From Bacilli bacterium (GTDB lineage Bacteria > Bacillota_I > Bacilli_A > RFN20 > CAG-826), in the NCBI GenBank assembly GCA_045597865.1, contig JAZLKX010000052.1, positions 43,017-107,016 of the forward strand: a stretch of DNA of 64,000 bases, in the 5' to 3' direction. Shown here piece by piece: positions 543 to 50,915 of this stretch. Position numbers and translations under genes: made by a program. The notes beneath the pieces were generated by a model. It was given only the letters and a program-made list of their open reading frames with translations, made no database searches and was not told the DNA's origin. Positions within the stretch are counted from its first letter, which is position 1; every line of letters starts with the position of its first letter.

Positions 543-559
543 ATAAAAAAAATTTTTTT

Positions 560-614: not shown

Positions 615-626
615 GGAGTGAAGACC

Positions 627-1256: not shown

Positions 1257-1479
1257 TAGTGAAACCAACACAATTTTTGAAATTAAACCTGATAGGATGA
1301 TGTATGAAATAAATAAAGCGAAGTATGAACTGATAAAATCCGCATGTATTAAAGAAGGATTTAATTTCATTCATATTGGCGATGAATGGTATGAATATGT
1401 AAAAAATCATAATATGTATTATGATTTTTGTTCAACTAAAATTTCATCAGAAATTATTAAAAAATTTTTTGGACGATAA
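1213..1479 (+). CDS. Homing-endonuclease-like protein, C-terminal part (PD-(D/E)xK / Vsr-like core), +1 frame relative to 627-1256
   Basis: DGKTKIYISDFYDSETNTIFEIKPD fits the Y-x-(P/S)-D-F ... E-x-K restriction-endonuclease-fold pattern. It continues the upstream ORF after a 1-nt frame change. Confidence 0.5.
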   Translation: MLDGKTKIYISDFYDSETNTIFEIKPDRMMYEINKAKYELIKSACIKEGFNFIHIGDEWYEYVKNHNMYYDFCSTKISSEIIKKFFGR

Positions 1480-1482
1480 AAA

Positions 1483-2385: not shown

Positions 2386-2392
2386 ATAAAGT

Positions 2393-14532: not shown

Positions 14533-15783
14533 ATGGAAATTCTCACAAAAGAGTTCACCGAACATTATCCGCAGATTATCACCCATCGTACTGACACTGA
14601 CTTCTATAAGTACACGATGCAGTATGTGATTTGGCGTATGTGTCCGTCTATCAAGTCGCACTGGAAGTTCAAGGTTCGCTCTGCTCATGCAAAGACTGCA
14701 TGGCTTACTGATGAAATCAATTATCAGCTTGACCGTGTAGCTGAACTGATGCACACCCAGGAAGAACTTGACTTCCTCGGCAACATTCCGTGGTTCACTC
14801 CTGAATTTATTGAACATCTTGAAGATCACCGCCTCAAGCGTAAGTATATCCGCTGCTGGGCGGATCTTGAAAAGGATGAAGTTTGTATTGAAGCAGAAGG
14901 TCCGGAATTGAATGTTCAGTGGTGGGAAATCTATGTTCTTGAAATCGTTCAGGAACTTTGGATGAGCAAGGCACCTCGTGATTATGACTGGGCCGATAAG
15001 GAACTGACGAAGACCATTGAAACTTACAATGCTCTTTATGAAAAGAAGCCTTTCACCCTTGCAGATTTTGGCTGCCGTCGCCGTGACTCTAAGAATTGGC
15101 AAGCACATGTGATTGAACGCTTGATGCGTGAATGCAAGGCTTTCGTTGGAACCTCCAATGTTTACTTCGCAATGAAGTACGGTATCAAGCCGATTGGTAC
15201 TTATGCACATCAGATGGAAGCTCTTACCCAGGGACTTGATGACGTGCCTTTGGCAAAGTCTCAGGAAACTGTTTGGGAATGGTGGACAAAGGTCTATCGC
15301 GGAAACTTGGGTATTGCTTTGTCTGACAACTTTGGCTTCAAGGCATTCCTCCGCAACTTTGACCTTTACTACAAGAAGTTGTTTGACGGTTGCCGTCACG
15401 ACTCTGGTAACCCGTTCACTTGGGGCGACATGCTTATTGACGCCTATAAGGCAGATAAGATTGACCCGCTGACAAAGACAGGTGTCTGGTCCGACGGCCT
15501 TGACCGTAATGATGTGGTTAAGATTGTTGACTACTTCTATGGCCGCATTAAGGTTTCCATTGGCCAGGGCGGCTACTTGATGTCCAGAACTATTCCGCCT
15601 ACTTACGAAGTTCAGCCGCTTAAGATGGTTATGAAGGTGATTGAAGTAAACGGTAAGCCGGTTGTCAAGCTTTCCGATGAACCGGGCAAGACGATGTGCG
15701 AAGATCAGTCCTTCGTTGATTACGCAAAGAAGGTCTATAAGTATGAACCGTTGACCGTAGAACACTACGACCACGAGATTTAA
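14533..15783 (+). CDS. pncB: Nicotinate phosphoribosyltransferase
   Basis: Collinear with E. coli PncB as I recall it: TDFYKYTM, ADFGCRRR, VGTSN, GTYAHQ, GIALSD, RHDSGNP, KLSDEPGKT. Confidence 0.9.
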   Translation: MEILTKEFTEHYPQIITHRTDTDFYKYTMQYVIWRMCPSIKSHWKFKVRSAHAKTAWLTDEINYQLDRVAELMHTQEELDFLGNIPWFTPEFIEHLEDHRLKRKYIRCWADLEKDEVCIEAEGPELNVQWWEIYVLEIVQELWMSKAPRDYDWADKELTKTIETYNALYEKKPFTLADFGCRRRDSKNWQAHVIERLMRECKAFVGTSNVYFAMKYGIKPIGTYAHQMEALTQGLDDVPLAKSQETVWEWWTKVYRGNLGIALSDNFGFKAFLRNFDLYYKKLFDGCRHDSGNPFTWGDMLIDAYKADKIDPLTKTGVWSDGLDRNDVVKIVDYFYGRIKVSIGQGGYLMSRTIPPTYEVQPLKMVMKVIEVNGKPVVKLSDEPGKTMCEDQSFVDYAKKVYKYEPLTVEHYDHEI

Positions 15784-15795
15784 ACTGGAGTCTCT

Positions 15796-16014
15796 ATGAA
15801 ACATTTGAAAGTATTGTGCCTATACTTCTTCATCTGTGCTTTAAATGCAGCGATGAGCGTAGCAACGGTGCCAGCATGGGCAATGCTAATTTTATCAGCG
15901 TTGTTCTACTGTACTATATGGGATCTATGCTCATATATGTTTACTGGCACTATGTGTTGGTATGATTTTGTGAAACAGATTGTCAAAAAGTTAAAACCCA
16001 AGGAGAAACCATGA
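15796..16014 (+). CDS. Small membrane protein
   Basis: Two hydrophobic helices, Cys-rich. Confidence 0.5.
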   Translation: MKHLKVLCLYFFICALNAAMSVATVPAWAMLILSALFYCTIWDLCSYMFTGTMCWYDFVKQIVKKLKPKEKP

Positions 16015-16132
16015 TTGACGAAAACCTTCATCCTAGCTATGCTTTAAAGCGACGGATTAAAGAACATACTGACAAGGATTTGGTTGACTTCTAATCAGTG
16101 GATTAAATCATTTTAAATTTGGGTGGGCACTA

Positions 16133-16190
16133 TTTACAGCCTACCCATTCTTTTTTATATTTTACTCGTAATCAAAAACAATAACTAAAA
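16133..16190 (+). promoter_or_regulatory. Class-I promoter P3 plus leader
   Basis: TTTACAG-N16-TATATTTTACTCGTAATCAAAAACAATAAC. The -35 element sits in the loop of hairpin gggtggg/cctaccc. Confidence 0.7.
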
Positions 16191-16202
16191 GGAAACTTAA
16201 AT

Positions 16203-17435
16203 ATGTACGGTAAACCACTTGCTTATGTTGTTAAGATTGACGAAGTGACCCCTATCGCAGGCGCTGACCGCATTGAACTTGCGAAGGTTATGGACTATAC
16301 AGTCGTTGTTAAGAAGGGAGAATTTCAGCCCGGCGACCGTGCTATGTATGTGGAAGTTGACTCTTTGCTTCCTGATGGATTTACGCCTGAACAGAAGGTT
16401 ACCTATGACGCTATCGTGGACGGCTCTTACTTCAAGGGTGCTCAGGTAAGCGTTGAAGAAGCAGATGAAGCTATGAAGAAGCTTCAGTCCGAGTCCAAGT
16501 ATCCTTACTTTGAGTTCCTTCGTCCGAAGAAATTCAAGATTAAATCAATGAAGCTCGGTAAGTTCGGCGTCATTTCTCAAGGCATTCTGTTTGATCTTAA
16601 GCTGCTTGGCGAACCGACTGATTTGAAGGTTGGAACTGATTTGACGCTTAAGTACAATGTGACTGAAATCGTTCTTGATGAAGAAGAAGCTGGTCTCAAT
16701 GCAGTTGTTGATACATCAAAGGACGGCTGGTTCACAAAGAAACTGATGCGTTATGCTTGGTTCCGTGACTGGCGTAAGCAGCGCGGAACTTACAATAAGT
16801 GGCTTGCTGAATGGCCTTCAAAATCTGACGAAGAAAACGTTCAGAAGATTTTCACTAAGATGAAGGCTAAGTACGGCGATAAAGAATGGGTTGCTACTGA
16901 AAAGCTTGAAGGCCAGAACATCACCATTTACTCTTACGAAACCCGCGGTTTCTTTGGTAAGAAGAAAAAGATCGGCGTATGTTCAAGAACCCGTAGCCTG
17001 TCTCCTGTAGACAACTCTGGTAAGTCTTTCTGGGGTACTGTCAAGCGTATGCACCTTGATGAAAAGATCAAGGCTATCCCAGGTGAATGGTTCTGCCGTG
17101 GTGAACATGTCGGTCCTGGCATTCAGAAAAACATCTACAAGCTTGCTCGTACGGAAGTTTACTTCTTTGACTTCTACCGCAAGGTTGATGGAAAGTTTGT
17201 TAAGTTGAACTTTGAAGAATCAGTACAGTTTGCGAAAACTTATGATCTTCCGTTTGTTCCAGTGCTTGATGAACATTATAAATTACCAGAGACTGCTCAG
17301 GAAATGCTTGCTCAGTCTGATAAAAACACTGTGTTTGGCAATGACTTGAAACACAAACGTGAAGGATTTGTTCTTCGCCTTAAAGATGACTACACCGTTT
17401 CCTTCAAGGTAAAAAATCCGTTCTACACAATTTAA
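16203..17435 (+). CDS. RNA ligase, Rnl5-like (N-terminal OB-like domain plus nucleotidyltransferase domain)
   Basis: The N-terminus VVKIDEVTPIAGADRIELAKVMDYTVVVKKGEFQPGD matches the DraRnl/NgrRnl-type module as I recall it. Motif I is EKLEGQN. Confidence 0.7.
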   Translation: MYGKPLAYVVKIDEVTPIAGADRIELAKVMDYTVVVKKGEFQPGDRAMYVEVDSLLPDGFTPEQKVTYDAIVDGSYFKGAQVSVEEADEAMKKLQSESKYPYFEFLRPKKFKIKSMKLGKFGVISQGILFDLKLLGEPTDLKVGTDLTLKYNVTEIVLDEEEAGLNAVVDTSKDGWFTKKLMRYAWFRDWRKQRGTYNKWLAEWPSKSDEENVQKIFTKMKAKYGDKEWVATEKLEGQNITIYSYETRGFFGKKKKIGVCSRTRSLSPVDNSGKSFWGTVKRMHLDEKIKAIPGEWFCRGEHVGPGIQKNIYKLARTEVYFFDFYRKVDGKFVKLNFEESVQFAKTYDLPFVPVLDEHYKLPETAQEMLAQSDKNTVFGNDLKHKREGFVLRLKDDYTVSFKVKNPFYTI

Positions 17436-17448
17436 GATACGGTAATGT

Positions 17449-17649
17449 ATGACTATTGCTAAAGCTGAAGAAGACTATATCAGGGGAATGATGTATGCAC
17501 GCGAACGGATGGTCCGTGAGTTGTTAGTACACTATGACAGTAATCTTTCACCACATCAGCGTGCAGTATTACGCGACTTTCTTGGTTTAGAAGAAAACAG
17601 TTCACAACAGCCGCGTCTTCCTGATAAAGACGCACCTAATTACATCTAA
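17449..17649 (+). CDS. Hypothetical protein
   Basis: ORF track; tightly packed; no motif recognised. Confidence 0.5.
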   Translation: MTIAKAEEDYIRGMMYARERMVRELLVHYDSNLSPHQRAVLRDFLGLEENSSQQPRLPDKDAPNYI

Positions 17650-17661
17650 GGAGAAACAAAT

Positions 17662-17901
17662 ATGCTTAAGAAGCTAATCCGCAACATGCTTGTGGCCAAA
17701 GCCGAAGTAGAATTTGTGAAAACCGTCATTGATGATGGTAACGAAAATGTTGAGCTAATCAATGAAGCAGACGAAGAATTTGATGCCATGACTGACATCG
17801 CTTATGCTTGGTTCATTGAAGAATTAAAGACCGCTGCCATTACTTTGGGCGTTGCTGTTGTCATCTGTGCAGTTATTGTGGGGGTTGCAGCATGTATATA
17901 A
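17662..17901 (+). CDS. Tail-anchored small membrane protein
   Basis: C-terminal TM segment AAITLGVAVVICAVIVGVAACI. Confidence 0.5.
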   Translation: MLKKLIRNMLVAKAEVEFVKTVIDDGNENVELINEADEEFDAMTDIAYAWFIEELKTAAITLGVAVVICAVIVGVAACI

Positions 17902-18260
17902 TTGAACGCCTAAAGCAAGATTATCCGCAGTTTAGAAAGGAACTTGAACAGTATGATCAGTACCTTTTGAGAACCCACGGCAAAGAGTATAATGCGCATC
18001 GCATCTTTGATGATCAGAAGGAAAACTTCAAATTCGTCCAAGCTGCCTATGATTCGTTAGCCAAGACCGGTAGTCACGGTAAAGAGTTCAATAAACAAAT
18101 GTCAATGTATGAACAAAGTTTGAATGATGACAAAGACTTTTTGGCATACTTCGTTCATCAGTTCTATGACATTGACGGAAGGAACATGACGGTTCCTGAG
18201 CTTAAAGAAATCATTCAGGAAAAGTTCAAGCAGATTGATAAACTTCGTGTTGGAGGCTAA
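17892..18260 (+). CDS. Hypothetical protein
   Basis: ORF track; 10-nt overlap with the upstream gene. Confidence 0.55.
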   Translation: MYIIERLKQDYPQFRKELEQYDQYLLRTHGKEYNAHRIFDDQKENFKFVQAAYDSLAKTGSHGKEFNKQMSMYEQSLNDDKDFLAYFVHQFYDIDGRNMTVPELKEIIQEKFKQIDKLRVGG

Positions 18261-26644: not shown

Positions 26645-27321
26645 TGAAAGATTATGATGTAATTGTTTCACTTACTACTTGGAAAGGCCGCATCAATGAT
26701 GATAAGGTCTATAAGGTTATCTTTAGACTTTTGAAACAGCAGGTAACCAACTTTAAGTACAAAGTTGTGTTAGTTCTTTCAAGAGAAGAATTTGGCGATG
26801 ATTATGTTTTGCCTGAACCACTTGCATTGATGGAACGGTTTGAACCAAACTTTGAAATACTCTGGACAGATAAGAATACAAAGGCACTAAAGAAGCTTGA
26901 CCCAACAATGGCTAAGTATCCTGAGTTGCCTATCATTACAACTGACGATGACATTTTATTAAAGCCAAATGCAATAGACATGATGATGCAGGCTCATGTT
27001 GGCTATCCTGATGCAATACTTGGAACAGTATGCGGTACATATTTTTGTGATATTTGTCGTGTAGGTAATTTAAGATTATTCCCACCACATTCTTTGGCTG
27101 ATTTGCCTGTATCTGATTTTGAAAAATACTTTAATTGTTTGCATGATGATGAATGGAATGGAATCCGTGCTAAAGCAAAAGGCACACGCATGCTGAAGGT
27201 TGCTGATAAACTTATTGAAAATGTTTCATACGGCGACCAAACAGATTCATTCAGAAAGATTTACAGCAAATTTGATTTTAAAGCTGCTTACGATAAGTAT
27301 ATGAAAGAACATAAGGAGTAG
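26644..27321 (+). CDS. Glycosyltransferase-like protein (GT-A type, DDD motif), paralogue of 28936-29568
   Basis: VSLTTWKGRI, VLVLSREEF, EILW, ITTDDDIL; all shared with the minus-strand paralogue. Confidence 0.55.
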   Translation: MKDYDVIVSLTTWKGRINDDKVYKVIFRLLKQQVTNFKYKVVLVLSREEFGDDYVLPEPLALMERFEPNFEILWTDKNTKALKKLDPTMAKYPELPIITTDDDILLKPNAIDMMMQAHVGYPDAILGTVCGTYFCDICRVGNLRLFPPHSLADLPVSDFEKYFNCLHDDEWNGIRAKAKGTRMLKVADKLIENVSYGDQTDSFRKIYSKFDFKAAYDKYMKEHKE

Positions 27322-27328
27322 GTGTACG

Positions 27329-28105
27329 ATGAAAAAGTATTTAACTGAAGTAGTTTTATTAACGAAGAGCTATAATCTTCAGGATTTTAAAGATTGGCTA
27401 CATTGGCATTTAGATATTATTGGTTTTGACCATTGCCATGTATTTGATAATGAAAGTTCAGTAGACATTAAATCGGTGTGTGATGCTTATGGTGAAAAAG
27501 TTAGTTATGAACTGATAAAAGGTTGGCCTAATCAATACGAACTGTATAATAGATATGTTAATAAAGAAAGTAAAGCTTGGTGGGTTTTGCCTATTGATGA
27601 TGATGAATATCTTTGGATGAAAAATTTTGATAACGTAAATAAAATGATTTTGTATTATCAAGATAAATGGAAAGATATGAACAAGTTAAGTATTAGATGG
27701 CAGAACATGTTTCCAAAAGATCCAAAAGCTGACCGCGGAAATAAATCACTTATGGAATTTAATACTGAAAATAATACCAAATGGGCAAATTTTTTTACAG
27801 GCGGAAATTTACCAGTAAAAACATTTGTAAAGACTACAAATGAAGTTATATATGATGAAAAGTCTAGTCAAACTCATAATCCTATAGTAAATAATCAAAT
27901 GTCATATCTATGTAATGGCGCTAGATTAAAAGGAAATTGGTTTAGAAGTGGCCCATATAATGATGCTGACGTAAAACTTTTACATTTTCAGTATAAGTCA
28001 GCTAAAGAATGGGAATGGAAATGCAAAAATAGATTAGCTATTTTTGGAAAAAAGAAATTTGTTTATACGGCTGGCCAGGAAAAAATTATTGAGAGGATGA
28101 AATGA
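27329..28105 (+). CDS. Glycosyltransferase-like protein (GT2/GT92-like), paralogue of 34736-35551
   Basis: LTKSYNLQDFKDWLHWH, DNESSVDI, IDDDEYLW. Very AT-rich. Confidence 0.5.
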   Translation: MKKYLTEVVLLTKSYNLQDFKDWLHWHLDIIGFDHCHVFDNESSVDIKSVCDAYGEKVSYELIKGWPNQYELYNRYVNKESKAWWVLPIDDDEYLWMKNFDNVNKMILYYQDKWKDMNKLSIRWQNMFPKDPKADRGNKSLMEFNTENNTKWANFFTGGNLPVKTFVKTTNEVIYDEKSSQTHNPIVNNQMSYLCNGARLKGNWFRSGPYNDADVKLLHFQYKSAKEWEWKCKNRLAIFGKKKFVYTAGQEKIIERMK

Positions 28106-28947
28106 TATATTTTGTAAATCCACCCAGACATCCAAACATTGGCGATATAGCAATTTTTTATGCTAGTTCATTACTTTTTAATAAACATGAACTTAAATAT
28201 GAAATTATGAATATAGAAAACTATAAAAAATTTACTATTAAACCTGAGGATAAAATAGTAATACTTGGCGGAGGCTGGGTTGGAATATACGATTGTTCTT
28301 TAACTGATTTTTATTATGATATTATAAACAAATATGAAAAGACTAATAAAATAATTATGATGCCGAATTCATTTGCGCCAATAAAGAAATCTTTTAATAA
28401 AATAGTTAATGCTAAAATTACAATCTTTGCACGAGATCCAATATCATATGATAATTATAAAAAGTATTTTAAAAATGCAACTGTTAAATTATGTCCAGAT
28501 ATAGTATATTCGTTACCCAGAATAGATTATGCTCACGAAACAACAAATTGTACCGGCGTGTATGCTAGAAAAGATGTAGAAACGGTTAAAGGAATTGAAA
28601 AAATTAAAGGCGAATATGTATCTAGGTTTTTACAAAAATCAATAAATTATGATAAAAATTTAGATGCTTTATTTAATGTTGTGTATAAACAAATTTTTAC
28701 AATGACTAAATATGATGTAATTGTAACTGATACATTACATATGTCTATTTTTGCATATTTACTTAAAAAACCATGTATCATATTTGACAATAATTATGGC
28801 AAAGTTAATAATACATGGAAACAATATAAACATGCCTGTGTATGTCCTTATGATAATAATTTAGGACAAGACATAAACAAATATAATTTTAATTATGAAG
28901 ATATAGATTTTAATTTTGATGAGTTAGTCGCTGAATTAAAGAAATAA
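28102..28947 (+). CDS. Possible polysaccharide pyruvyl-transferase-like / GT-B-like enzyme
   Basis: N-terminal PNIGDIAIF and ILGGGW are reminiscent of the PS_pyruv_trans family. Weak assignment. Confidence 0.35.
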   Translation: MIYFVNPPRHPNIGDIAIFYASSLLFNKHELKYEIMNIENYKKFTIKPEDKIVILGGGWVGIYDCSLTDFYYDIINKYEKTNKIIMMPNSFAPIKKSFNKIVNAKITIFARDPISYDNYKKYFKNATVKLCPDIVYSLPRIDYAHETTNCTGVYARKDVETVKGIEKIKGEYVSRFLQKSINYDKNLDALFNVVYKQIFTMTKYDVIVTDTLHMSIFAYLLKKPCIIFDNNYGKVNNTWKQYKHACVCPYDNNLGQDINKYNFNYEDIDFNFDELVAELKK

Positions 28948-29568
28948 ATCTTTTAAAATCGGATGTGACTTATAATTATGTAAAGCTCCAACATCAGTAT
29001 GAAATAAATATGGAAATTTGTTTGGATGAACATATAAAATTGATATTTTTTTCTCTTTACACATTTTAAAATAAAAAGCATCATCTGATTTTAAATAGTG
29101 TTTATATTCTTTATAAAATTTTTCTAAAGTTTTATCATCTAAAAAACCAGGTGGATATAATGTACATGGGCCCTGTGTACAGCCATTTTGCTTTTTGTAT
29201 GTTATAACATTTAATTTATTTAAACAGTATTTTTCATACAGTTCTTCAGCATAATTATATGTGTATAAACAGTCGTCATCTGCACTTATGATAGGCACAG
29301 TTTTATACTTATCCATCGTAAACAGAACTTTCTTAAGTGATTTATAGTTCTTATATACCCATAAGATTTCAAAGTACTTACTAAGAAGCATCAAGTCTTT
29401 TGGCAATTCTTCTTCTTTCTTAGGAAATTCTTCTTCACTAAGTACAAGTACGATATGAAAACCCGGACAGTTCTTAATCAAACTATAAATGGTTTTACCT
29501 ACAGTATTGATTCTTGCTTTCCAGCTTGTTAAACTAATGATTGCCTTTTCACCTTGATACTCTTTCAT
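28936..29568 (-). CDS. Glycosyltransferase-like protein, paralogue of 26644-27321
   Basis: ISLTSWKARI, VLVLSEEEF, EILW, ISADDDCL. Convergent with the upstream + strand genes. Confidence 0.55.
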   Translation of the reverse strand: MKEYQGEKAIISLTSWKARINTVGKTIYSLIKNCPGFHIVLVLSEEEFPKKEEELPKDLMLLSKYFEILWVYKNYKSLKKVLFTMDKYKTVPIISADDDCLYTYNYAEELYEKYCLNKLNVITYKKQNGCTQGPCTLYPPGFLDDKTLEKFYKEYKHYLKSDDAFYFKMCKEKKISILYVHPNKFPYLFHTDVGALHNYKSHPILKDLFL

Positions 29569-29577
29569 TTATAGCAC

Positions 29578-30147
29578 CTAAATCTTAATTCCATCCACTT
29601 CAGTCTGATTCTTTGATGCAGCGACTAACTCTTTTAGTCGCTGCTCTTCTTCCGCGAAATAATCAGGCTTCTTGTACTTACCTTTGTTTCGCCATTCGGT
29701 TTTCCATTTCTTCTTGAAACCATAATCAGGATCGTACTTCTTAGTCACATACTTCGCAGGTACGTTGTTTGTAAGATACACACCTTCTTCCGTTGTCGGA
29801 TCTCGATAGATCTCATAACCCTTCGGCACAAGTACGCGGTAGCAGTAGATATGTTCATCGTCTTCATCATGTTCATTTGTGACCATGCTGTAAGCTCTGT
29901 CAATATCGCCGTAATCAAAGATGCAGTAGATTCGGCCATCATATACATCAAAGTCGTTATCCTTCTCACGGCTACGGCAACGAATGCCTTTTTCATCAAG
30001 ATCGCCGATATGACTTAGATGATACAGAATACGGAGCCCCGTCTTTCTGTCAATTTCAAAACTGTCATCATCAACACGTTCATCAGGATGGTATGTATTT
30101 GGCGTCACCCAGATCTCGTCGTCGTCCCCATCTATCTTTTGGTTCAT
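29578..30147 (-). CDS. Hypothetical acidic protein
   Basis: 189-aa ORF. Its first 65 nt overlap the end of 30083-30439 in another frame. Confidence 0.5.
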   Translation of the reverse strand: MNQKIDGDDDEIWVTPNTYHPDERVDDDSFEIDRKTGLRILYHLSHIGDLDEKGIRCRSREKDNDFDVYDGRIYCIFDYGDIDRAYSMVTNEHDEDDEHIYCYRVLVPKGYEIYRDPTTEEGVYLTNNVPAKYVTKKYDPDYGFKKKWKTEWRNKGKYKKPDYFAEEEQRLKELVAASKNQTEVDGIKI

Positions 30148-30439
30148 GTATGCTTACATTGAAACCGCAGGTCTGACAGATCTTCTTAAATTCATCAGCA
30201 GGAATTTTCTCCAGTACATCTTTGCTGAAAATGTAAGTGTCTTCGTATGTGCTGCTTGTTCTTGACAGATATTCATCAAACATGCTGAGATAGTCATAAT
30301 CAGGATCATATGCAGGATCGTCTTTTGACGGCAGAAGCTTCTTACCAATGATCAGCTTCAATTTCTTATCATTTGCCCATACGGATTCAGCTATGTAACC
30401 GTTCTCAGCGAGAATTTTTAAAGATTCAGAAAGATTCAT
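30083..30439 (-). CDS. Hypothetical protein with N-terminal L-x-E-(A/S)-x-x-I-L-x-x-N-G motif
   Basis: MNLSESLKILAENGYIAE; the same motif heads 30725 and 32121. Confidence 0.55.
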   Translation of the reverse strand: MNLSESLKILAENGYIAESVWANDKKLKLIIGKKLLPSKDDPAYDPDYDYLSMFDEYLSRTSSTYEDTYIFSKDVLEKIPADEFKKICQTCGFNVSIHEPKDRWGRRRDLGDAKYIPS

Positions 30440-32579: not shown

Positions 32580-32634
32580 GATTGTTCCAAGGATTCTGAA
32601 ATATAAGTAAATACTTCGGAAAAAATTATTTAAG

Positions 32635-33771: not shown

Positions 33772-34302
33772 ATGCCTGATTACAATGTTGAGATTTTACA
33801 ACATCCAACAGAAGATGATTGGCAAACAGTAAAGCTTCTTGCCTTAAACACGATGGGCAAGAGCTATATGAAGGATAAGGAAATGTCTCAGGAATTGAAG
33901 GCTAAATATCTTCGTTCTGAGCATTCACCTATTCGTGCTTTGCAGTTTATCATCAAGATGGAAATTCCGTATTATGTTTCTACACACCTTGTAAGACATA
34001 AGTACGGCGTTGAACATTTTATTCAGTCACAGCGAAATGATCGTCAGGATAAGTATGACCGTGAACAGGCACCACAGGGCGCTTTGGTATCACATATCAT
34101 GCTTGTCAATGCTCAAGCGCTGATGGCTATGTCAAGAAAGCGTCTGTGTGGTAAAGCTGATATTACTACGCAGAAGGTTTGGAGAACTGTTGTCAAAAAG
34201 GTACTTGAAACTAATCCTGAATTTAAGGAAGTTCTCGTTCCTAACTGTGAATACCTACATTCTTGCCCTGAGTTCCAATCTTGTGGGCGTTGGAAAGAAT
34301 AA
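33772..34302 (+). CDS. thyX: FAD-dependent thymidylate synthase-like protein (short ThyX)
   Basis: EHSPIRALQFIIKMEIPYYVSTHLVRHKYGVEHFIQSQRN fits the ThyX signature RH(R/K)-x7-S-x-R. The downstream NAQAL..SRKRLC helix also fits. Confidence 0.65.
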   Translation: MPDYNVEILQHPTEDDWQTVKLLALNTMGKSYMKDKEMSQELKAKYLRSEHSPIRALQFIIKMEIPYYVSTHLVRHKYGVEHFIQSQRNDRQDKYDREQAPQGALVSHIMLVNAQALMAMSRKRLCGKADITTQKVWRTVVKKVLETNPEFKEVLVPNCEYLHSCPEFQSCGRWKE

Positions 34303-35559: not shown

Positions 35560-35606
35560 TTTACAGTAATAGGAAAAGTTGTTAAATTTTATTCGTAATC
35601 AAAATG
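35560..35606 (+). promoter_or_regulatory. Class-I promoter P6 plus leader
   Basis: TTTACAG-N16-TAAATTTTATTCGTAATCAAAA. Confidence 0.65.
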
Positions 35607-35616: not shown

Positions 35617-36090
35617 ATGCCTAACTATTTCACCCCTGCCCTCTATCTGATCCGCGGTGTTGCGGGTTCCGGCAAGACAACTTATGCAAAGAATCATTTG
35701 ATTCCTATCCTGCAGAAAGAAACCGGTATTGTACCGATTCCGCACTTTGAAGCAGATGACTTCTGGATGAGACGACAGCCGGATGGTTCGCTTAAGTATG
35801 TGTTTGAACCTGCTAAACTGGGTTTGGCTCATAAGACCTGCCTTGACAATATGAAGGCTGCATTCAACAGCGCAGATTTTCATACGGTAGTTGTTGTTTC
35901 AAACACTTTCACGACTGAAAAGGAAATGAAGCCTTACATTGAGTTTGCTGAACAGAACGGTATTGAGGTAAACGTCATTCGTATGAATACTTGGTACGGT
36001 TCAATTCACGATGTTCCTGCCGATGTCATTGACAATATGCGTAAGCGCCTGGAAGCAAATCCATATCCTTATGAAACTGTGATTGGATAA
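35617..36090 (+). CDS. P-loop polynucleotide-kinase-like protein
   Basis: LIRGVAGSGKTTYAKN Walker A. Small AAA_33/Pnk-like size (157 aa). First gene of the RNA-repair cassette. Confidence 0.6.
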   Translation: MPNYFTPALYLIRGVAGSGKTTYAKNHLIPILQKETGIVPIPHFEADDFWMRRQPDGSLKYVFEPAKLGLAHKTCLDNMKAAFNSADFHTVVVVSNTFTTEKEMKPYIEFAEQNGIEVNVIRMNTWYGSIHDVPADVIDNMRKRLEANPYPYETVIG

Positions 36091-36150
36091 ATTAAAACAG
36101 GCGAAGCAAAACAACATTTTAGCGCAGCGCATTGCTGCATAAGGATTTTT

Positions 36151-36927
36151 ATGTCAAACCATATTGTGATACCTGACGACAAAGAACTGTATTTTGTTTC
36201 TGACTTCCATTTTTGCCATCATAAGCTCTGCCGAGGCTATGAAGACTCGTTCAACATGCCTCGTAACTTTGAAACGACAGATGAGATGAATGAAGCCATC
36301 GTCAAGTCAATGCAATTAGGTCCTAATGCAGTTGTTGTGTTCTTGGGCGACTTTTGTATGAATGTGCCTGGGTCAGAAATGCGTGATACTTTTTATAAGT
36401 TCATTGACCAGTTCAAAGTTGACAAGATGTTGATGATTTTTGGAAATCATGACCATGTGTTGAAGAAGAAACTATGCGATGACAACATTGAGTTCTATTC
36501 ATACACGGTTATTGAACATCGTGGCAAGACATATTTCTGTCAGCACCGTGACTTTAATGAAAATCCATACTTCCTGAAACACGAAGGTGCGGAATTTCTT
36601 AACGCTATTCCTGAAAACTGTCTATATCTTGTACACGGACATACACATTCACCGATCTTCTTGTCTAAAGTTGATAAATGGACGCAGAACTGCGTTTGCT
36701 TTGATGTTGCCAATCGTCCTATCGCCGCAGACGAACTTGTTCCGTACGATATGGACATTAATGCAGACATTGATTTGGCTCCGGAGCTTACTCAGTACTA
36801 TGAGAATATCGCTGAAGAGTGTGGAACTTCATTGGAACAGCTGATTGATGACAGCATTCATCATGCGATGTCACACAATGAAGTGCTTCAGGAAATCAAC
36901 TATGCACTAAACAACTTAACCAAATAA
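36151..36927 (+). CDS. Calcineurin-type metallophosphoesterase 1
   Basis: Motifs SDFHF, GDF, GNHD, GHTH. Confidence 0.75.
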   Translation: MSNHIVIPDDKELYFVSDFHFCHHKLCRGYEDSFNMPRNFETTDEMNEAIVKSMQLGPNAVVVFLGDFCMNVPGSEMRDTFYKFIDQFKVDKMLMIFGNHDHVLKKKLCDDNIEFYSYTVIEHRGKTYFCQHRDFNENPYFLKHEGAEFLNAIPENCLYLVHGHTHSPIFLSKVDKWTQNCVCFDVANRPIAADELVPYDMDINADIDLAPELTQYYENIAEECGTSLEQLIDDSIHHAMSHNEVLQEINYALNNLTK

Positions 36928-36934
36928 ATAATAC

Positions 36935-37072
36935 ATGAGAAAGCTATACGAAACCCTTTGCCGTCTTATTGACGAAGATCCTATAGTTATCATGCTATAT
37001 GGTCTTGAGGGTCTCGTTGTTTTGACCGGCTTAGGTCTTGTGGCTCTCATCGCCAAAGTAATGTTACTTTAG
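36935..37072 (+). CDS. Micro membrane protein (45 aa)
   Basis: One TM segment; ends in TAG; below the track cutoff. Confidence 0.35.
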   Translation: MRKLYETLCRLIDEDPIVIMLYGLEGLVVLTGLGLVALIAKVMLL

Positions 37073-37080
37073 GAAGTAAT

Positions 37081-37239
37081 ATGTCAATACTGATGGGCAT
37101 CTTATTTATCTTAATAGGTCAGATTATGTGGATGGTAAATGCACCCGTTGCATGCGTCATTCTTGAGACTTTGCTCGGTCTTATGTGCTTGACCTATTCT
37201 ACCATTGAACATTTTTCAAACAAGAAGGATCCAAAATGA
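37081..37239 (+). CDS. Micro membrane protein (52 aa)
   Basis: Two hydrophobic segments; the stop overlaps the next ATG (ATGA). Confidence 0.4.
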   Translation: MSILMGILFILIGQIMWMVNAPVACVILETLLGLMCLTYSTIEHFSNKKDPK

Positions 37240-38099
37240 AAACTGGATATGTACTTTCGGATGTCCATGTAGATTTTCTTTACAGGGGCAATAACCCGGA
37301 ACATACTTATGAAGAATTTGCTGCACTTGCTGACAAATGGCTTGTTGGGTTGAACTTGCCGCCTACATACGCACTTATCGTTGCTGGCGACATCTCAAAC
37401 GACTTTCAGACATTCACTTACTTCTGTCAGTGGATTTCTGGTAAGTATTCAAAGACTTACATTGTGCCTGGAAACCATGATATGGTTGTGAGAGGCTCAA
37501 CGCCGTCTACCTCTAATCAGCAGTTTCAGACTTCCTTTGACAGAATTGAAGCTATGAAGAAGGAATGCGCCAAGTATGATAATGTTGTCCTGCTTGATGG
37601 TGACATTATTGATGGAATCGGCGGAACCATGGGTATGTGCGATTTTGAATATCGCCCAAGCATTACGCTGAACTATCCGTTGTTCTGGAAGATGCATTGG
37701 TTTGATGGCAAGCACTGGAGACTTGATGGCACTGAACCTTTGGAATACTGGAAGCAGCAGCAGGCTAAGATGCACGCCATCATTGATAAGCAGCCAAAGG
37801 TTGTGATGACGCATTTTGCGCCTGTTCAGGTTGGCGTTCCGTTTGAATATCGGAATGATAACTGCTCTTGCTTCTTCTATTTCAACGGTGAGGAATTCTT
37901 GGAAAGAATGCCGAATGATTCCTATTGGATCTGCGGTCATACCCATGATTTCCATGCAGTAGATTATACCTGCAAGAATGGCAATGTTGTGCACATTCTT
38001 TGTAACCCACATGGCTATCCTGGTGAACAGGACTATAATTGGTATGATCCTACCGCAGGTTACAAGAAAGAAAATTTCATCATTCCATTGCCAGAATAG
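37236..38099 (+). CDS. Calcineurin-type metallophosphoesterase 2
   Basis: Motifs SDVHVD, AGDISND, PGNHD, THF, GHTHD. Confidence 0.75.
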   Translation: MKTGYVLSDVHVDFLYRGNNPEHTYEEFAALADKWLVGLNLPPTYALIVAGDISNDFQTFTYFCQWISGKYSKTYIVPGNHDMVVRGSTPSTSNQQFQTSFDRIEAMKKECAKYDNVVLLDGDIIDGIGGTMGMCDFEYRPSITLNYPLFWKMHWFDGKHWRLDGTEPLEYWKQQQAKMHAIIDKQPKVVMTHFAPVQVGVPFEYRNDNCSCFFYFNGEEFLERMPNDSYWICGHTHDFHAVDYTCKNGNVVHILCNPHGYPGEQDYNWYDPTAGYKKENFIIPLPE

Positions 38100-38143
38100 T
38101 TAAAAGTTGTTATTTTAAAAACACAATTCAACAAGGAGATAAC

Positions 38144-38464
38144 ATGAGCCGTTCTCGTAAGAAACCTCTTCCTGGTACAAAAGAAACTTTCCGCGTCGGT
38201 ATTGCATATTGTGATGACTGGACTATGGGTAAGTGGAAGCGCAGATACAACCGTGATATGCGCCGCAAGAATCACCAGCTTGAAAATGTTATCTCCAAAC
38301 TTGATGAAGATTCCATTGAGGACGATGAAAGCGTTTGGATGAATGATCCGAATGATTTGCCGTCCGGTGTCGGTGATTTGTGGCTGTCACCTTGTGATGG
38401 ATATTTGCTGTTTGACGCATCTGTCCGACGGAACGGCAAAACTTATCAGCTTGCTATGAAATAA
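38144..38464 (+). CDS. Hypothetical basic protein
   Basis: ORF track; SD aaggag. Confidence 0.55.
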   Translation: MSRSRKKPLPGTKETFRVGIAYCDDWTMGKWKRRYNRDMRRKNHQLENVISKLDEDSIEDDESVWMNDPNDLPSGVGDLWLSPCDGYLLFDASVRRNGKTYQLAMK

Positions 38465-38466
38465 AT

Positions 38467-38697
38467 ATGGGACCAACTGAACGAACATTAATGATGGCGC
38501 AGTATGCAGGCAATGGCCAGGTATTACTTGACTCTGCAGGCATGCTTTTTGTTTTAGCAGGCTTGTCATTTCTGTGCTGTTTAATTGTTGTGGCAATTTG
38601 CTTATGTGCCGTGAATGAATTTGTGGATTGGTATAACAAAAAGAAACTGAAGAAAGAATTTGAAGAGGAAGAAGATGACATACACACCAAAACTTGA
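38467..38697 (+). CDS. Small membrane protein
   Basis: Central TM segment and an acidic tail. Confidence 0.5.
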   Translation: MGPTERTLMMAQYAGNGQVLLDSAGMLFVLAGLSFLCCLIVVAICLCAVNEFVDWYNKKKLKKEFEEEEDDIHTKT

Positions 38698-39838
38698 AGA
38701 CTATATGAAGGCACTTGAAGAAAACCGTGTCTTTGCTTGTGAAGATGAGCATTACATTGGTTTCAAGTACAATGCGCCTACTGTCATTTTCCATTATTGG
38801 GACGATGTAACCTTGAACGCCCGTGGAATTGTCTTTGACAAAGCTACTGGTGAAATTGTGGCTCGTCCTTTCTATAAGTTCTTTAACTACGAGGAACTTA
38901 TCAACGGTGCCGGTGCAAGAACTGACATTCTTGATAAGATGGAAGCTTGTGGTTTTAAATTTGACCGCACTGAATCCTTCCGCGTAATGGACAAACTTGA
39001 CGGATCTTTAGGAATTATGTTTTACGATAAGTATGCAGGTTCTTGGAGAGTAAAGACAGGCGGAGCTTTTAGCTCAAATCAAGCAGCGTGGGCAAATGAA
39101 TGGGCAAAGAAGAACATTACTTCTGGCCTTGACACTTCGCTTACTTACTGCTATGAAATCATCTATGACGCAGATATTCACCCAATCTCGTATGACTTTG
39201 AGGGCATGGTTCTATTAGGAGCCATTGATACTGCAACAGGTGAGGAAGTATCTTTAGAGCAGCTTCGTCAAATTGCCGTTGAGCAAAAAGTAAGACTTGC
39301 TGACATCATTGAGTTCAAATCATTTGATGAAGCAATCTCTTATGCAAAGAACCTTTCTAAAACAAAGGAAGGTGTTGTGGTGACATTTAAGAACGGTTTC
39401 AAGGTAAAGATCAAGGGTCATGAATTCTTGGCTTTGCAGAAACAGTTCCATGCTATCACAAAAGAAATGATCTGGGAGAACTATGATTGTGAAAACTGGC
39501 TACACCCATACACAGCAGAATTCTTAGCATCTATTCCTGAAGAAATGAAGGAAATGCATGATTATGCTGAAGAGCTTGACAAGAAGATTTCAGAAGCAAC
39601 CTATGTTGCACGAAGCACCGCTTATCGTGTGTACAAAATGATTAAAGATGCAAACTTACAGCGCCGTGATGCGTTTGAGTTGATTACATCTTGCTTTGCG
39701 AAATTCAATCCAAAGCTGGTTGGTCCAGCTATGAAGGTATATTCATTGTTGGAACAGGGTAAGACTGACCGTGACATCAGCTCACCTGAATGTGTATCTT
39801 CTATTGTCAAGTTAGTTCACCGATTATTCAAACCTTAA
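38675..39838 (+). CDS. RNA ligase, T4 Rnl1-like
   Basis: RPFYKFFNYEE, motif I MDKLDGSLG, motif IV EGVVVTF, motif V FKVKIKG. Confidence 0.75.
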   Translation: MTYTPKLEDYMKALEENRVFACEDEHYIGFKYNAPTVIFHYWDDVTLNARGIVFDKATGEIVARPFYKFFNYEELINGAGARTDILDKMEACGFKFDRTESFRVMDKLDGSLGIMFYDKYAGSWRVKTGGAFSSNQAAWANEWAKKNITSGLDTSLTYCYEIIYDADIHPISYDFEGMVLLGAIDTATGEEVSLEQLRQIAVEQKVRLADIIEFKSFDEAISYAKNLSKTKEGVVVTFKNGFKVKIKGHEFLALQKQFHAITKEMIWENYDCENWLHPYTAEFLASIPEEMKEMHDYAEELDKKISEATYVARSTAYRVYKMIKDANLQRRDAFELITSCFAKFNPKLVGPAMKVYSLLEQGKTDRDISSPECVSSIVKLVHRLFKP

Positions 39839-43717: not shown

Positions 43718-43960
43718 ATGACGTTCAAAGACATCGCGTTAAATGAACTTGCTGCAACAATTAAGCGACAGGAAATCATTATTAAGAACTGCACAGATCC
43801 TGAAGAACGGTTTGTTGCATTAAACATCGCGGAAAACCTTAAGTAGATTAAAGCACAACTGGTTGAATATGTAAAGACACCAGCATTCGCACAAGCCGTA
43901 AAAATGTATCAAGATTCTCTCGCGGCTGAAACTGAGGAGGAAACTAAAGATGACAAATAA
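43718..43960 (+). CDS. Small helical protein (80 codons) with an in-frame TAG at 43844-43846
   Basis: ATG lies after agagg. The frame is open on both sides of the TAG and ends at a TAA overlapping the next start by 11 nt. Confidence 0.45.
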
Positions 43961-44645
43961 CTTTGAACAAATCAGATCTCTTTTGAAGTTTGAAAATGAA
44001 GGCGACTGCTATTATGTTCAGTTGCTTCGCAGACAGTCAGATGATCCGCTGATTGATGGTAAGAAAGATCCTAAGTATCATGGAAACATGCATTCACGCA
44101 GTATCAAGGATTACTTTATTCGTTCACTTGAACACTTTGATGATGTTAAGGAAGATATCATCAAGCTTTGTGAAATGTTCAATGTTCGTGCATATATTCG
44201 TTTGAACAAGCGTACATATAAGCGTATTGCTTTGGTAATGCTGAGACATATCGCAGAACAGGCTGCATCTGGTGAAACCTATTCTTCGCCTTTTCATATG
44301 ATTGCATCTGCCGCGGGTACCGCAAACTGTGCAGGCGATGATAAAACATGGATTGTTGATGAAGACGCTGAATATCTGCGTTATGAAGAAAAGATCAAGG
44401 CTATTATTGAACAGTGTGAACCAACTGACCGTCAAAAGGTTATTGCGGTAATTCCTACAAAGTCAGGTCGTCATCTTATTACCAGACCGTTTAATCTTCA
44501 AACGTTTAAGACACTTTGGGAAAAGGATGAAGACTTGCAAACTTTAGAAGTTTTGGACATTCACAAAGATAACCCAACTATCTTGTATGTTCCGGGACCA
44601 GACAAGTGCAAGACATACGAGGAAGTGGTAAATCGTGAGGGATAA
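43950..44645 (+). CDS. Hypothetical protein
   Basis: SD gaggagg; 231 aa; no motif recognised. Confidence 0.6.
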   Translation: MTNNFEQIRSLLKFENEGDCYYVQLLRRQSDDPLIDGKKDPKYHGNMHSRSIKDYFIRSLEHFDDVKEDIIKLCEMFNVRAYIRLNKRTYKRIALVMLRHIAEQAASGETYSSPFHMIASAAGTANCAGDDKTWIVDEDAEYLRYEEKIKAIIEQCEPTDRQKVIAVIPTKSGRHLITRPFNLQTFKTLWEKDEDLQTLEVLDIHKDNPTILYVPGPDKCKTYEEVVNREG

Positions 44646-49100: not shown

Positions 49101-49146
49101 TTTCTTACCCTCATAAATATCACAAAACATTTATTATATTTTGAAT

Positions 49147-49647
49147 ATGAAAAAATTAACCTTTGTTTTAGATGTAGATGGCGTGCTTACTGACGGTACA
49201 TTTCTGTACGATGCAAACGGTAAAGCATATAAAAAGTTTGGCCCTGAAGACGCTGATGCTTTAAAGATGTTGGCTCCGTACTGCAATATCGTTTTTGCAT
49301 CCGCTGACACCCGTGGTTTTGAAATCACAAAAAAGCGTGTAAACGATATGGGTTTTGAGGTTCACAACATTAAGGCTCGTGACCGTAAGAATTGGATTAA
49401 AGATAACTTTGGGCTTGAGAATACGATTTACATGGGCGACGGCCTGGTTGATATTCCGTGCCTAGAATCGGTTAAGTATTCTTATGTGCCGGCTAACGGA
49501 TCGGTTGAAGCAAAACGAGCTTGTAATAAAATACTGCAGGAAATGGGCGGTCATGGCGCTGTCGCTGAAGCCGTATATGATATTGCAGAAACATTTTTCA
49601 ACAAGACATATATTGATTTACTAAAGGAGAATGGATATGACGTATAA
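49147..49647 (+). CDS. HAD-IIIA sugar-phosphate phosphatase (KdsC/YrbI family)
   Basis: VLDVDGVLTDG ... YMGDGLVDIP ... GGHGAVAEA. Confidence 0.75.
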   Translation: MKKLTFVLDVDGVLTDGTFLYDANGKAYKKFGPEDADALKMLAPYCNIVFASADTRGFEITKKRVNDMGFEVHNIKARDRKNWIKDNFGLENTIYMGDGLVDIPCLESVKYSYVPANGSVEAKRACNKILQEMGGHGAVAEAVYDIAETFFNKTYIDLLKENGYDV

Positions 49648-50215
49648 CGAATTGAAGGACAAGGTACTTGCTGAGCTTAATCAGTCGCTTAGCTCCATTG
49701 ATGAACGCATCGTTGACCAACTGGCTGAAGAACTGGCTTACAAGCGCCAGGCCGTTATCGTTGGACACGCTGCTGGCCGTATGGGTTATGGTCTTCGTGC
49801 TTTCATTATGAGGCTCATGCATTTGGGCTTTCACGCTTACTGGTACAATGATACTACCATTCCGCACATGTCACCGAACGATATGTTCATTTTCGCATCT
49901 GGCTCTGGTAAGACACGAACTGTTGTAAATCTGGCTGAAATCGCAAAAGAAAAGAGCGGCTGCCGCATTGTTTCTGTAACTGGCGATGTTGAGTCACCGC
50001 TTGCTAAGATTTCTGATTTGGTCATTAAGTTCACTGGCTGTAATAATGGATTGAACTCTGAAAATGATCCTAGTAAGATTAACAGCATTCAGCCGATGAC
50101 GACTTTGAATGAACAGGCGATGTTTATTTTCTTTGATTTGCTTGCTTTGAAGATTATGGAAAAGCTTGGCGAAGACAACAACACTCTTAGCTATCGCCAT
50201 AACAATATAGAATGA
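49631..50215 (+). CDS. Single-SIS-domain sugar-phosphate isomerase (6-phospho-3-hexuloisomerase-like)
   Basis: GRMGYGLRAFIMRLMHLGFHAY, IFASGSGKT, SIQPMTTLNEQAMFIFFD, C-terminal RHNNIE; close to HxlB-type PHI as I recall it. Confidence 0.7.
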   Translation: MDMTYNELKDKVLAELNQSLSSIDERIVDQLAEELAYKRQAVIVGHAAGRMGYGLRAFIMRLMHLGFHAYWYNDTTIPHMSPNDMFIFASGSGKTRTVVNLAEIAKEKSGCRIVSVTGDVESPLAKISDLVIKFTGCNNGLNSENDPSKINSIQPMTTLNEQAMFIFFDLLALKIMEKLGEDNNTLSYRHNNIE

Positions 50216-50231
50216 TTATAAAGGAAAACAG

Positions 50232-50915
50232 ATGAATATCAGTACATCACTTATCTGTATGAACATGTCTCAGGTTGATAAAGACATCAACCGAGTTCTT
50301 ACAGCAGCTAACGGCGACACCAGATTTAACTGGTTTCATGGAGATTTTATGGATGGTCACTTTGTTCCGCGCCTTGGCATTTCGCCTGAACTTATTCGTG
50401 ACATCAAGCAGGAATTTCCGAATGTACAGATTGACAGTCACTTGATGATTGATGATCCGTACACTTATGTTGATGTTATCGCTCCGTATTCTGATTGGGT
50501 CGTTTATCATTATGAAGCGGTCACTGACCCAGTTCGTACACTTCAAAAGATCCGTAAGACATGGCCGAATGTTAAGGTTGGACTTGCGATGAATTTGGCT
50601 ACACCGTTTGATCCGAGCATCATTCAGCTCTTTGACGGCGTTATGTTCATGGGAATCTCTCCAGGCGTTCTTGGAACCAATTCATATCCGCAAATCGTTG
50701 AACAGAAAATTGGCGCTGTTCCAACACATAAACATTACTTTGTTGATGGTTCTGTGAATTTCACAACACTTAAGACATACGGCGACATCAACCCCAATGG
50801 AACACTTGTTTGTGGTTCATCTACGATGTTTAAGATTGATGATCTTACTAAGGGTATGAACCGTGATGATCTTGTCAAGTTCAACGTGAACCGCATTAAG
50901 GAGAAAATTGTATGA
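50232..50915 (+). CDS. Ribulose-phosphate 3-epimerase-family enzyme (pentulose/hexulose-phosphate 3-epimerase)
   Basis: FHGDFMDGHFVPRLG, IDSHLMI, VDGSV, CGSS. Confidence 0.7.
   Translation: MNISTSLICMNMSQVDKDINRVLTAANGDTRFNWFHGDFMDGHFVPRLGISPELIRDIKQEFPNVQIDSHLMIDDPYTYVDVIAPYSDWVVYHYEAVTDPVRTLQKIRKTWPNVKVGLAMNLATPFDPSIIQLFDGVMFMGISPGVLGTNSYPQIVEQKIGAVPTHKHYFVDGSVNFTTLKTYGDINPNGTLVCGSSTMFKIDDLTKGMNRDDLVKFNVNRIKEKIV

Follow-up and report, generated by a model that had tools for sequence, protein, structure and literature searches.

In phage T4, tRNA repair is carried out by Pnkp (PseT) and Rnl1 (gp63): a 5'-OH kinase and a 3'-end phosphoesterase heal the broken ends, and an Rnl1-family ligase seals them (PMC6097658, PMC3592404). 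The T4 kinase is fused to a phosphatase of the DxDxT (HAD) type (PMC3592404). In the Pnkp-Hen1 system of Clostridium thermocellum, kinase, metallophosphoesterase, and ligase are combined, in this order, in one trifunctional protein, Pnkp, whose phosphatase is lambda-phosphatase-like and whose ligase, distinguished by unique insert and C-terminal modules, depends on Hen1, the protein that is also responsible for methylation of the junction (PMC3675462). Separate-gene RNA repair sets with a swapped phosphoesterase module are represented by Pnkp1-Rnl-Hen1 of Capnocytophaga gingivalis and by the HD-Pnk cluster of Runella slithyformis (PMC4411300, PMC6097658); in the former, a T4-Pnkp homologue with a HAD phosphatase forms a heterohexamer with Hen1 (PMC4411300), and in the latter, an HD esterase is fused to the kinase. 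HAD, HD, and metallophosphoesterase modules have thus all been described beside a PNK kinase (PMC4411300, PMC6097658), and a calcineurin-like phosphatase in place of the HAD one in phage PNK-plus-ligase repair has been noted computationally for a few jumbo phages (Iyer et al., PMC7824862). Here, we analyzed a cassette located at positions 35617 to 39838 of a 64-kb stretch of contig JAZLKX010000052.1 (the window, that is, all the 64,000 nucleotides considered), which derives from a large, uncultured phage; the cassette embeds a small P-loop kinase, two metallophosphoesterases (MPE1 and MPE2), and an RNA ligase.

We consider it probable that the kinase, MPE1, and the ligase repair RNA by a "heal-and-seal" pathway split over separate genes, a type that is widespread in phages. 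The basis of this reading is given by the families of the three proteins, their intact motifs, the fold of the kinase, the gene neighborhoods, and a bacterial gene fusion; from these, we infer all the enzymatic activities, the RNA substrate, and the biological role. In the proposed mechanism, MPE1 would take off a 2',3'-cyclic or 3'-phosphate, the small PNK-type kinase would phosphorylate the 5'-OH, and the Rnl1-type ligase, using ATP, would seal the 3'-OH/5'-phosphate break. The kinase and MPE1 together would be the functional counterpart of the bifunctional T4 Pnkp, with a metallophosphoesterase replacing the HAD phosphatase. The cassette is a further member of a recognized, computationally described phage RNA-repair variant and, for the window itself, represents an annotation and not a new system. 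An earlier note on this DNA had proposed an RNA end-healing and sealing cassette; all its open reading frames (ORFs) and motif strings were found where it placed them, on the + strand, and its proposal stands for the kinase, MPE1, and the ligase on profile, fold, motif, neighborhood, and fusion evidence. The inclusion of MPE2 and the assignment to the Pnkp type do not stand, as discussed below.

The family matches of the cassette proteins are reported in Table 1. Concerning the kinase and the ligase, single-sequence searches of the PDB returned noise only, and matches to solved structures were obtained with family profiles. The kinase family profile matched T4 Pnk (1LY1) end to end, with an E-value of 3e-6, followed by Pnkp1 (1e-4), the kinase of the C. 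thermocellum Pnkp (CthPnkp, 1.5e-4), and the mammalian PNKP (1.6e-3); the P-loop region additionally matched nicotinamide riboside kinase. In the alignment of 22 family members, the P-loop (G14-x-x-G17-x-G19-K20-T, in agreement with GxxGxGK[ST]) and Asp47 are invariant, and the motifs "SNTFTT" and "HDVP" are conserved. D47, placed about 25 residues past the P-loop, is aligned with Asp35 of T4, the general base. The AlphaFold2 (AF2) model of the protein has a predicted local distance difference test score (pLDDT) of 88.7, with no second domain in its 157 residues. The Foldseek search of this model against the PDB placed T4 Pnk on top (template modeling (TM) score 0.66-0.68), and then phosphoseryl-tRNA kinase (PSTK, 0.75), the CthPnkp kinase (0.69), and the mammalian PNKP; its BFVD neighbors are labeled polynucleotide kinase, and a number of these proteins carry a metallophosphoesterase or ligase domain in the same chain. 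Sequence and model together point to a predicted 5'-OH polynucleotide kinase, with a substrate that we infer.

For the ligase, the most likely start codon is ATG 38675, the one given in the earlier note, since it fits the alignment with the orthologue from the related contig L003 better than TTG 38660, the mechanical start of the ORF. The motif strings KFFNYEE, KLDGSL, EGVVV, and KVKIKG were confirmed, and the invariant positions of the family alignment (numbered from ATG 38675) are K107 (in KLDG), E161, E232-G233, and K245/K247, corresponding to motifs I, III, IV, and V; we take the aligned residues of T4 Rnl1 to be K99, E159, E227-G228, and K240/K242. The top match of the ligase profile was T4 Rnl1 (2C5U, E 4e-28); lesser matches included the tRNA ligase 9QW7 (5.5e-9), 8UCE ("ATP dependent DNA ligase" chains, 4e-6), and the Rnl3-type PAB1020 (1e-3), and no Pnkp ligase domain was retrieved at E<0.1. 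The sequence thus assigns the protein to the Rnl1 family, with the full set of catalytic motifs. It consists of an adenylyltransferase domain and a C-terminal domain of about 120 residues, and the phrog_562 match reaches residue 360. A profile built on the long ligase members only was also tried, and its match to T4 still stopped short of the C-terminal domain.

The five metallophosphoesterase motifs of MPE1 (D18/H20, G66-D67, G98-N99-H100, H132, and G163-H164/H166) are all invariant in its family. Its best solved relative is aq_1665 from Aquifex (1XM7, E 2e-22), and the CthPnkp phosphatase (4J6O) matches it at the motif level only (2.5e-3 over about 50 residues). Through its orthologue in the related contig L002, MPE1 is tied to a "phosphoesterase" that is encoded beside the kinase in isolated phages (see below). 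These data are consistent with MPE1 being a regular partner of the kinase and a predicted end-healing esterase acting on 2',3'-cyclic phosphate/3'-phosphate.

The comparison with T4 shows the same ligase family and the same fold and catalytic Asp in the kinase; the difference is that the T4 kinase is fused to its phosphatase, whereas here a lone kinase is accompanied by a separate binuclear metallophosphoesterase. A kinase-HAD Pnkp of the T4 type was not found in the window, whose single HAD match (49141-49647) stands alone, beside SIS and ribulose-phosphate epimerase genes. T4 also has a second, nick-sealing ligase. Likewise, the window harbors a second RNA ligase at 16203-17435 (+), of the DraRnl/NgrRnl (Rnl5) type and with an N-terminal OB domain, as indicated by PF09414 and PHA02142, by TIGR02306, and by PDB 5COT (E 5e-25). 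This second ligase lies inside a cluster for the salvage/synthesis of nicotinamide adenine dinucleotide (NAD+) at 14533-21269 (+), which looks like a phage NAD+ reconstitution set.

The gene neighborhoods were then considered. Homologues of the kinase are present in 614 records of isolated phages, and in all five lineages inspected (Thalassavirus, Vequintavirus, Pakpunavirus, Otagovirus, and Justusliebigvirus) the kinase gene lies beside those for an "RnlA-like RNA ligase" and a "phosphoesterase" of about 185 residues, which belong to the same families as the ligase and MPE1 of the window. This trio, annotated as "ATPase/phosphoesterase/RnlA-like RNA ligase", is co-oriented within a few kb, as in the rV5-like phage Murica, the phi92-like alia, the PAK_P1-like YS35, phiPsa374, and the T5-like Vibrio phage Pontus, and represents the group to which the window cassette itself belongs. 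The phage trio differs from the cassette in gene order and in the length of its proteins, the ligase (about 305 residues) lacking the C-terminal domain and the esterase being shorter than the 258 residues of MPE1; moreover, MPE2 and small membrane ORFs are inserted in the window. In 80 kinase-carrying loci from IMG/VR, where partners were counted within 6 kb, all three genes are present and co-stranded in 23, seven more have kinase and MPE1, and two have kinase and ligase; the partner totals are 29-30 for MPE1 and 24-25 for the ligase. The association of the kinase with the ligase and MPE1 is far beyond chance, because about 1% of the isolated-phage records match either family. The association of the trio genes is nevertheless facultative, since 47 of the 80 loci have neither MPE1 nor ligase within that distance; when the neighbors of these 47 were clustered, no recurrent enzyme partner emerged, just small hypothetical proteins.

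A physical link between the families was found in bacteria. Representative genomes were scanned with the MPE1 family, and in seven of the 80 resulting loci an MPE1-type gene lies directly 3' of an ORF of about 500 codons encoding a kinase-Rnl1 fusion, whose N-terminus belongs to the phage kinase family (E 1e-12 to 1e-15) and whose C-terminus is an Rnl1 ligase (E ~1e-60). The hosts are Moraxella bovis, M. caprae, a Neisseria metagenome-assembled genome, three Cardiobacteriaceae, and Cardiobacterium hominis NCTC10426 (loci L212, L217, L237, L239, L245, L247, and L249, the last at 1706-5654 in C. hominis NCTC10426). Furthermore, five of the related bacterial loci have a Ro60/TROVE(-vWA) gene immediately upstream. 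This operon, composed of Ro60/TROVE, kinase-Rnl1 fusion, and metallophosphoesterase, shares the kinase, Rnl1, and MPE1 families with the cassette; unlike the phage genes, which are separate, the bacterial kinase and ligase form one polypeptide, and the operon is chromosomal and Ro60-linked. No description of the operon was found in the literature searched (the survey of Burroughs and Aravind, 2016, lay outside that search). The fusion represents the strongest evidence that the kinase family works on RNA together with an Rnl1 ligase and an MPE1-type esterase.

As a separate observation, the window encodes at 22666-25450 (+) a DUF2828/DUF7788/vWA protein (phrog_850, "RNA-binding protein"), followed by an AAA/STAND-like ATPase. 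The vWA protein is possibly Ro60/TROVE-like; a direct BLAST comparison with the Ro60 of the C. hominis locus gave nothing significant, and an Rfam scan of the window retrieved no Y-RNA-like or other known RNA.

The organization of the cassette was also compared among related contigs, in all four of which MPE1 is found. In L003 (kinase 70% identical), the order is kinase, an inserted ORF, MPE1, MPE2, small ORFs, another inserted ORF, and ligase; in L002 (ligase 55%), it is kinase, a homing endonuclease, MPE1, a 120-residue ORF, and ligase, without MPE2. The arrangement is more than chance, because the gene order is kept in these two contigs. The third, L095 (MPE1 62%, MPE2 57%), has both esterases and the same flanking synteny without the kinase, and at 5233-5607 it carries a 124-residue ORF with 40% identity to the C-terminal 125 residues of the ligase; either the cassette has decayed in this contig, or the ORF represents a C-terminal domain standing on its own. 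Thus, kinase and ligase occur jointly (window, L003, and L002) or are both lost (L095), MPE1 is constant, and MPE2 varies independently. The gap between kinase and MPE1 (36091-36150) is, in relatives, the insertion site of a homing-endonuclease-like ORF of about 150 residues (phrog_655): insertions of this type are found at 6208-6660 in L002 and at 10496-10960 in L003, and a horse-gut strain has about 440 extra bases there.

Several points weigh against a repair pathway formed by the kinase, MPE1, and the ligase. The equivalents of Arg38 and Arg126 of T4, which bind the substrate phosphate, are not conserved in the kinase family; the Arg of the "NRHGN" motif of most members is replaced in the subclade of the window ("NTWYG"), which has a partly conserved R122. 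The C-terminal domain of the ligase could not be aligned by sequence with the tRNA-specificity domain of T4 in the PDB profile search. As for MPE1, its nearest solved relative, aq_1665, is itself uncharacterized, and the protein weakly resembles PdeM, a DNA-ligase-associated esterase (NCBIfam, E 7e-7, below the cut-off). Moreover, a ligase-independent role, sole or additional, must be assigned to MPE1, because in L095 both esterases persist although the kinase is missing and no more than a remnant of the ligase is left. To these must be added the kinase loci with neither partner; no measured activity was found in the literature for any member of the kinase or MPE1 families, and no tRNA genes were found in the window. 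The reversal of PrrC-type cleavage is plausible. The earlier note had also named RloC, but this enzyme removes the wobble nucleotide (PMC2610378); healing and sealing alone would not put that nucleotide back, and the reversal of RloC cleavage is not plausible.

In principle, the cassette might also be read as a disassembled bacterial Pnkp-type pathway with a duplicated esterase, as the earlier note did; in this case, both esterases would heal, one opening the 2',3'-cyclic phosphate and the other removing the monoester. We regard this as unlikely. The catalytic motifs of MPE2 (D9/H11, G51-D52, G79-N80-H81-D82, H193, and G234-H235/H237) are all invariant in its family, so that both esterases have them intact, and the two genes are adjacent in the window, in L003, and in L095; a jumbo phage has an MPE2 homologue and an MPE1-family gene 2.6 kb apart. 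It is also known from the lambda and CthPnkp phosphatases that metallophosphoesterases can open cyclic phosphates (PMC3675462). Nevertheless, the L002 cassette keeps kinase, MPE1, and ligase without MPE2. Homologues of MPE2 in L089, L093, L094, phage G, and GAP32 were found with no kinase or ligase nearby, and just one of the 80 IMG/VR kinase loci has an MPE2-like gene. The AF2 model of MPE2 (pLDDT 87.8) has its best fold match in PptH, the phosphopantetheinyl hydrolase of M. tuberculosis (6UNC, TM 0.66-0.69), all the other fold matches having TM scores below 0.5, and neither the lambda phosphatase nor the Pnkp domain appears among the top 50. The sequence-level PDB match of MPE2 is the cyclic-nucleotide phosphodiesterase Lmo2642. 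MPE1 and MPE2 were also considered as possible duplicates of each other, and this was rejected: their BLASTP comparison gave an E-value of 0.006, the profile-profile alignment covers just 46 columns around motifs II-III, and only the motifs of the superfamily are in common.

As for the Pnkp type itself, the cassette shares with Pnkp-Hen1 the combination and the order of kinase, esterase, and ligase, and the distant relationship between the kinases; the window, however, has three separate genes with ORFs between them, and neither a lambda-phosphatase-like module nor a Pnkp ligase domain was found, the ligase being of the Rnl1 type and MPE1 being aq_1665-like. Pfam scans of the + strand ORFs of at least 55 residues and of the long - strand ORFs of the window retrieved no Hen1 or any other methyltransferase. 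The Capnocytophaga and Runella sets resemble the cassette in being separate-gene sets; unlike in either of them, the esterase of the window is a separate metallophosphoesterase, and neither Hen1 nor Tpt1 was found in the Pfam scans. Pnkp1-Rnl-Hen1, with its T4-like HAD phosphatase and Hen1, is therefore no model for the cassette either. MPE2 is probably a passenger of a PptH-like family, outside the repair pathway; like the small membrane ORFs, it most likely represents an accessory gene with no relation to the pathway that sits inside the cassette by chance.

A further possibility is that these genes are just accessory counter-defense neighbors, the kinase and the esterases acting on nucleotides or signals (cyclic nucleotides or NAD-related metabolites) and the ligase alone acting on RNA. 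Such a scenario, which we also hold to be improbable, agrees with the match of MPE2 to Lmo2642 and of the kinase P-loop region to nicotinamide riboside kinase, with the esterases kept in L095 without a kinase or a full ligase, and with the 47 kinase loci lacking both partners; in Pontus, YS35, and phiPsa374, moreover, the kinase adjoins genes resembling those for phosphoribosyl pyrophosphate (PRPP) synthetase and NAMPT. On the other hand, the full-length profile and fold matches of the kinase are polynucleotide and tRNA kinases and not nucleoside kinases, NAMPT-like neighbors occur in four of the 80 loci, far fewer than MPE1 or the ligase, and the NAD genes of the window lie 15-20 kb from the cassette. 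The seven bacterial genomes in which an MPE1-family gene follows the kinase-Rnl1 fusion physically tie the families.

Finally, the kinase and MPE1 might prepare 5'-OH and 3'-phosphate ends of DNA for the phage DNA ligase in replication or repair, with Rnl1 functionally separate; we hold this to be very improbable. In its favor, DNA is also a substrate of T4 Pnkp and of mammalian PNKP, MPE1 has its weak, below-cut-off match to PdeM of the bacterial ligase-associated DNA damage response, and in Murica, phiPsa374, and alia the trio has an ATP-dependent DNA ligase gene within a few kb. Against it, the fusion partner and regular neighbor of the kinase is an Rnl1-family RNA ligase and not a DNA ligase, the bacterial operon includes the RNA-binding Ro60/TROVE, and the DNA ligase gene of the window (12131-13444) is 22 kb away.

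The split repair pathway formed by the kinase, MPE1, and the ligase might include a further component. The ORF located 4.1 kb downstream of the cassette belongs to phrog_14949, a family of proteins of about 200 residues with invariant N4, R28, D137, D139, G173, and H175, which comprises 1516 cluster representatives. Homologues are found directly beside the kinase or the ligase in five loci (L011, L032, L036, L081, and L083), and within 6 kb of the family gene in 80 IMG/VR loci anchored on it, the kinase is present in 16, MPE1 in 21, and Rnl1 in only three. Searches of PDB sequences gave no match, also when a profile of 66 members was used, and across the members no Pfam family was retrieved. 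The family is a possible accessory partner of the kinase-MPE1 pair. That it represents a new RNA-end-processing enzyme working with this healing pair is a speculative idea, to which we assign a low probability; its invariant DxD and GxH recall, by eye only, the catalytic core of primase-polymerases. If true, the protein could re-add nucleotides lost at the break, which would allow repair after base-excising nucleases such as RloC, or it could be an alternative sealing/tailing activity in the many phages in which it is found with kinase and MPE1 but without Rnl1.

Concerning the layout of the cassette (Table 1), the genes are tightly packed, with intergenic gaps from -23 to 60 nucleotides and Shine-Dalgarno-like sites. 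The earlier note had placed them behind a "class-I promoter P6"; what was found in the 65-nucleotide gap 5' of the kinase is just one sigma-70-like match (9/12 positions), the count of sites in the scan did not exceed that of shuffled sequence, and no repeated "class-I" promoter emerged, the flanking/upstream 22-mer occurring once in the window. The scan of the cassette region gave convincing terminators at 32632 and 43534 only. The two tiny membrane proteins reported at 36935 and 37081 do correspond to ORFs, both hydrophobic (best 19-residue Kyte-Doolittle score above 2.2) and partly conserved in relatives: just the N-terminal 20 residues of the former are recognizable in L095, and the latter is conserved in L003 (30%) and L095 (39%). 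The ORF with a basic N-terminus is conserved in L003 (49%) and gave no family matches in Pfam, PHROG, and NCBIfam scans, and the small membrane ORF that follows it has weak similarity in L003. The region 38191-38650 is strain-variable, metagenomic strains having divergent sequence of equal length.

Table 1. Features of the cassette, of its surroundings, and of the NAD+ cluster in the window.
Feature	Position	Strand	Length (aa)	Motifs, matches (E-value), and remarks
NAMPT-like (NAD+ cluster)	14533-15783	+		
NMNAT-Nudix (NAD+ cluster)	18261-19346	+		
Isochorismatase/nicotinamidase-like (NAD+ cluster)	19820-20401	+		
NAD synthase (NAD+ cluster)	20472-21269	+		
Sigma-70-like hexamer pair, possible promoter only	35560-35588	+		TTTACA-17-TAAATT with TG
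P-loop kinase	35617-36090	+	157	GVAGSGKT; AAA_33 (9e-8), phrog_2071 (4e-30), phrog_505 "polynucleotide kinase" (1.6e-6)
MPE1 metallophosphoesterase	36151-36927	+	258	C-terminal extension; DFHF/GDF/GNHD/GHTH; Metallophos (5e-7), phrog_547 (3e-24)
Small hydrophobic ORF	36935-37072	+	45	
Small hydrophobic ORF	37081-37239	+	52	
MPE2 metallophosphoesterase	37236-38099	+	287	DVHVD/GDISND/GNHD/GHTHD; Metallophos (5e-14), phrog_1649 (1e-21)
ORF with basic N-terminus	38144-38464	+	106	
Small membrane ORF	38467-38697	+	76	Overlaps ligase start
Rnl1-family RNA ligase	38675-39838	+	387	Length from ATG 38675; RNA_lig_T4_1 (1e-16), phrog_562 (8e-46), TIGR02308 (below its equivalog cut-off)
phrog_14949 family ORF	43950-44645	+	231	phrog_14949 (1.6e-33)

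The 64-kb window codes almost wholly on the + strand, and its genes include those for a family-B DNA polymerase, UvsX, a DNA ligase, and numerous accessory enzymes. No close relative was found among isolated phages, since neither the megablast search with the cassette nor the tblastn search with an ORF of 1718 residues gave matches; near-identical sequence is known from gut, fecal, and horse metagenomes. Metatranscriptome contigs span the cassette, even if such contigs are no proof of transcription. The large ORF just mentioned and another of 596 residues, both at 2393-9340 (+), have no Pfam or PHROG match. Upstream of them, at 9-2385 (+), intein sequences interrupt the DExH-type motif of a helicase (ResIII/Helicase_C); one ORF (9-542) carries the N-terminal and another (1483-2385) the C-terminal part of the intein, with further ORFs in between, and the intein may be split or degenerate. 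Sugar-related genes, which may reflect surface-glycan or DNA-sugar modification, are located at 26644-30439 and 49141-50915 and code for glycosyltransferases, a polysaccharide pyruvyl transferase, a HAD-family hydrolase, a SIS-domain protein, and a ribulose-phosphate 3-epimerase; among them, the stretch 28936-30439 is low in G+C (0.30) and has - strand ORFs. A short ThyX/Thy1-like ORF is found just 5' of the cassette (33772-34302), and thymidylate kinase-like and thymidylate synthase-like genes lie near the window end (61787-63093).

The repair of tRNA is a classic counter-defense of phages, and, to our knowledge, only its T4 Pnkp/Rnl1 version has been studied biochemically. The split version can now be seen as common: rV5-like, phi92-like, PAK_P1-like, and T5-like Vibrio phages all have it, as do many metagenomic phages, and its bacterial counterpart carries a kinase-ligase fusion next to Ro60. 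The reading proposed here gives a testable prediction for two abundant phage genes whose annotations ("ATPase" and "phosphoesterase") are vague and for which tractable model phages exist.

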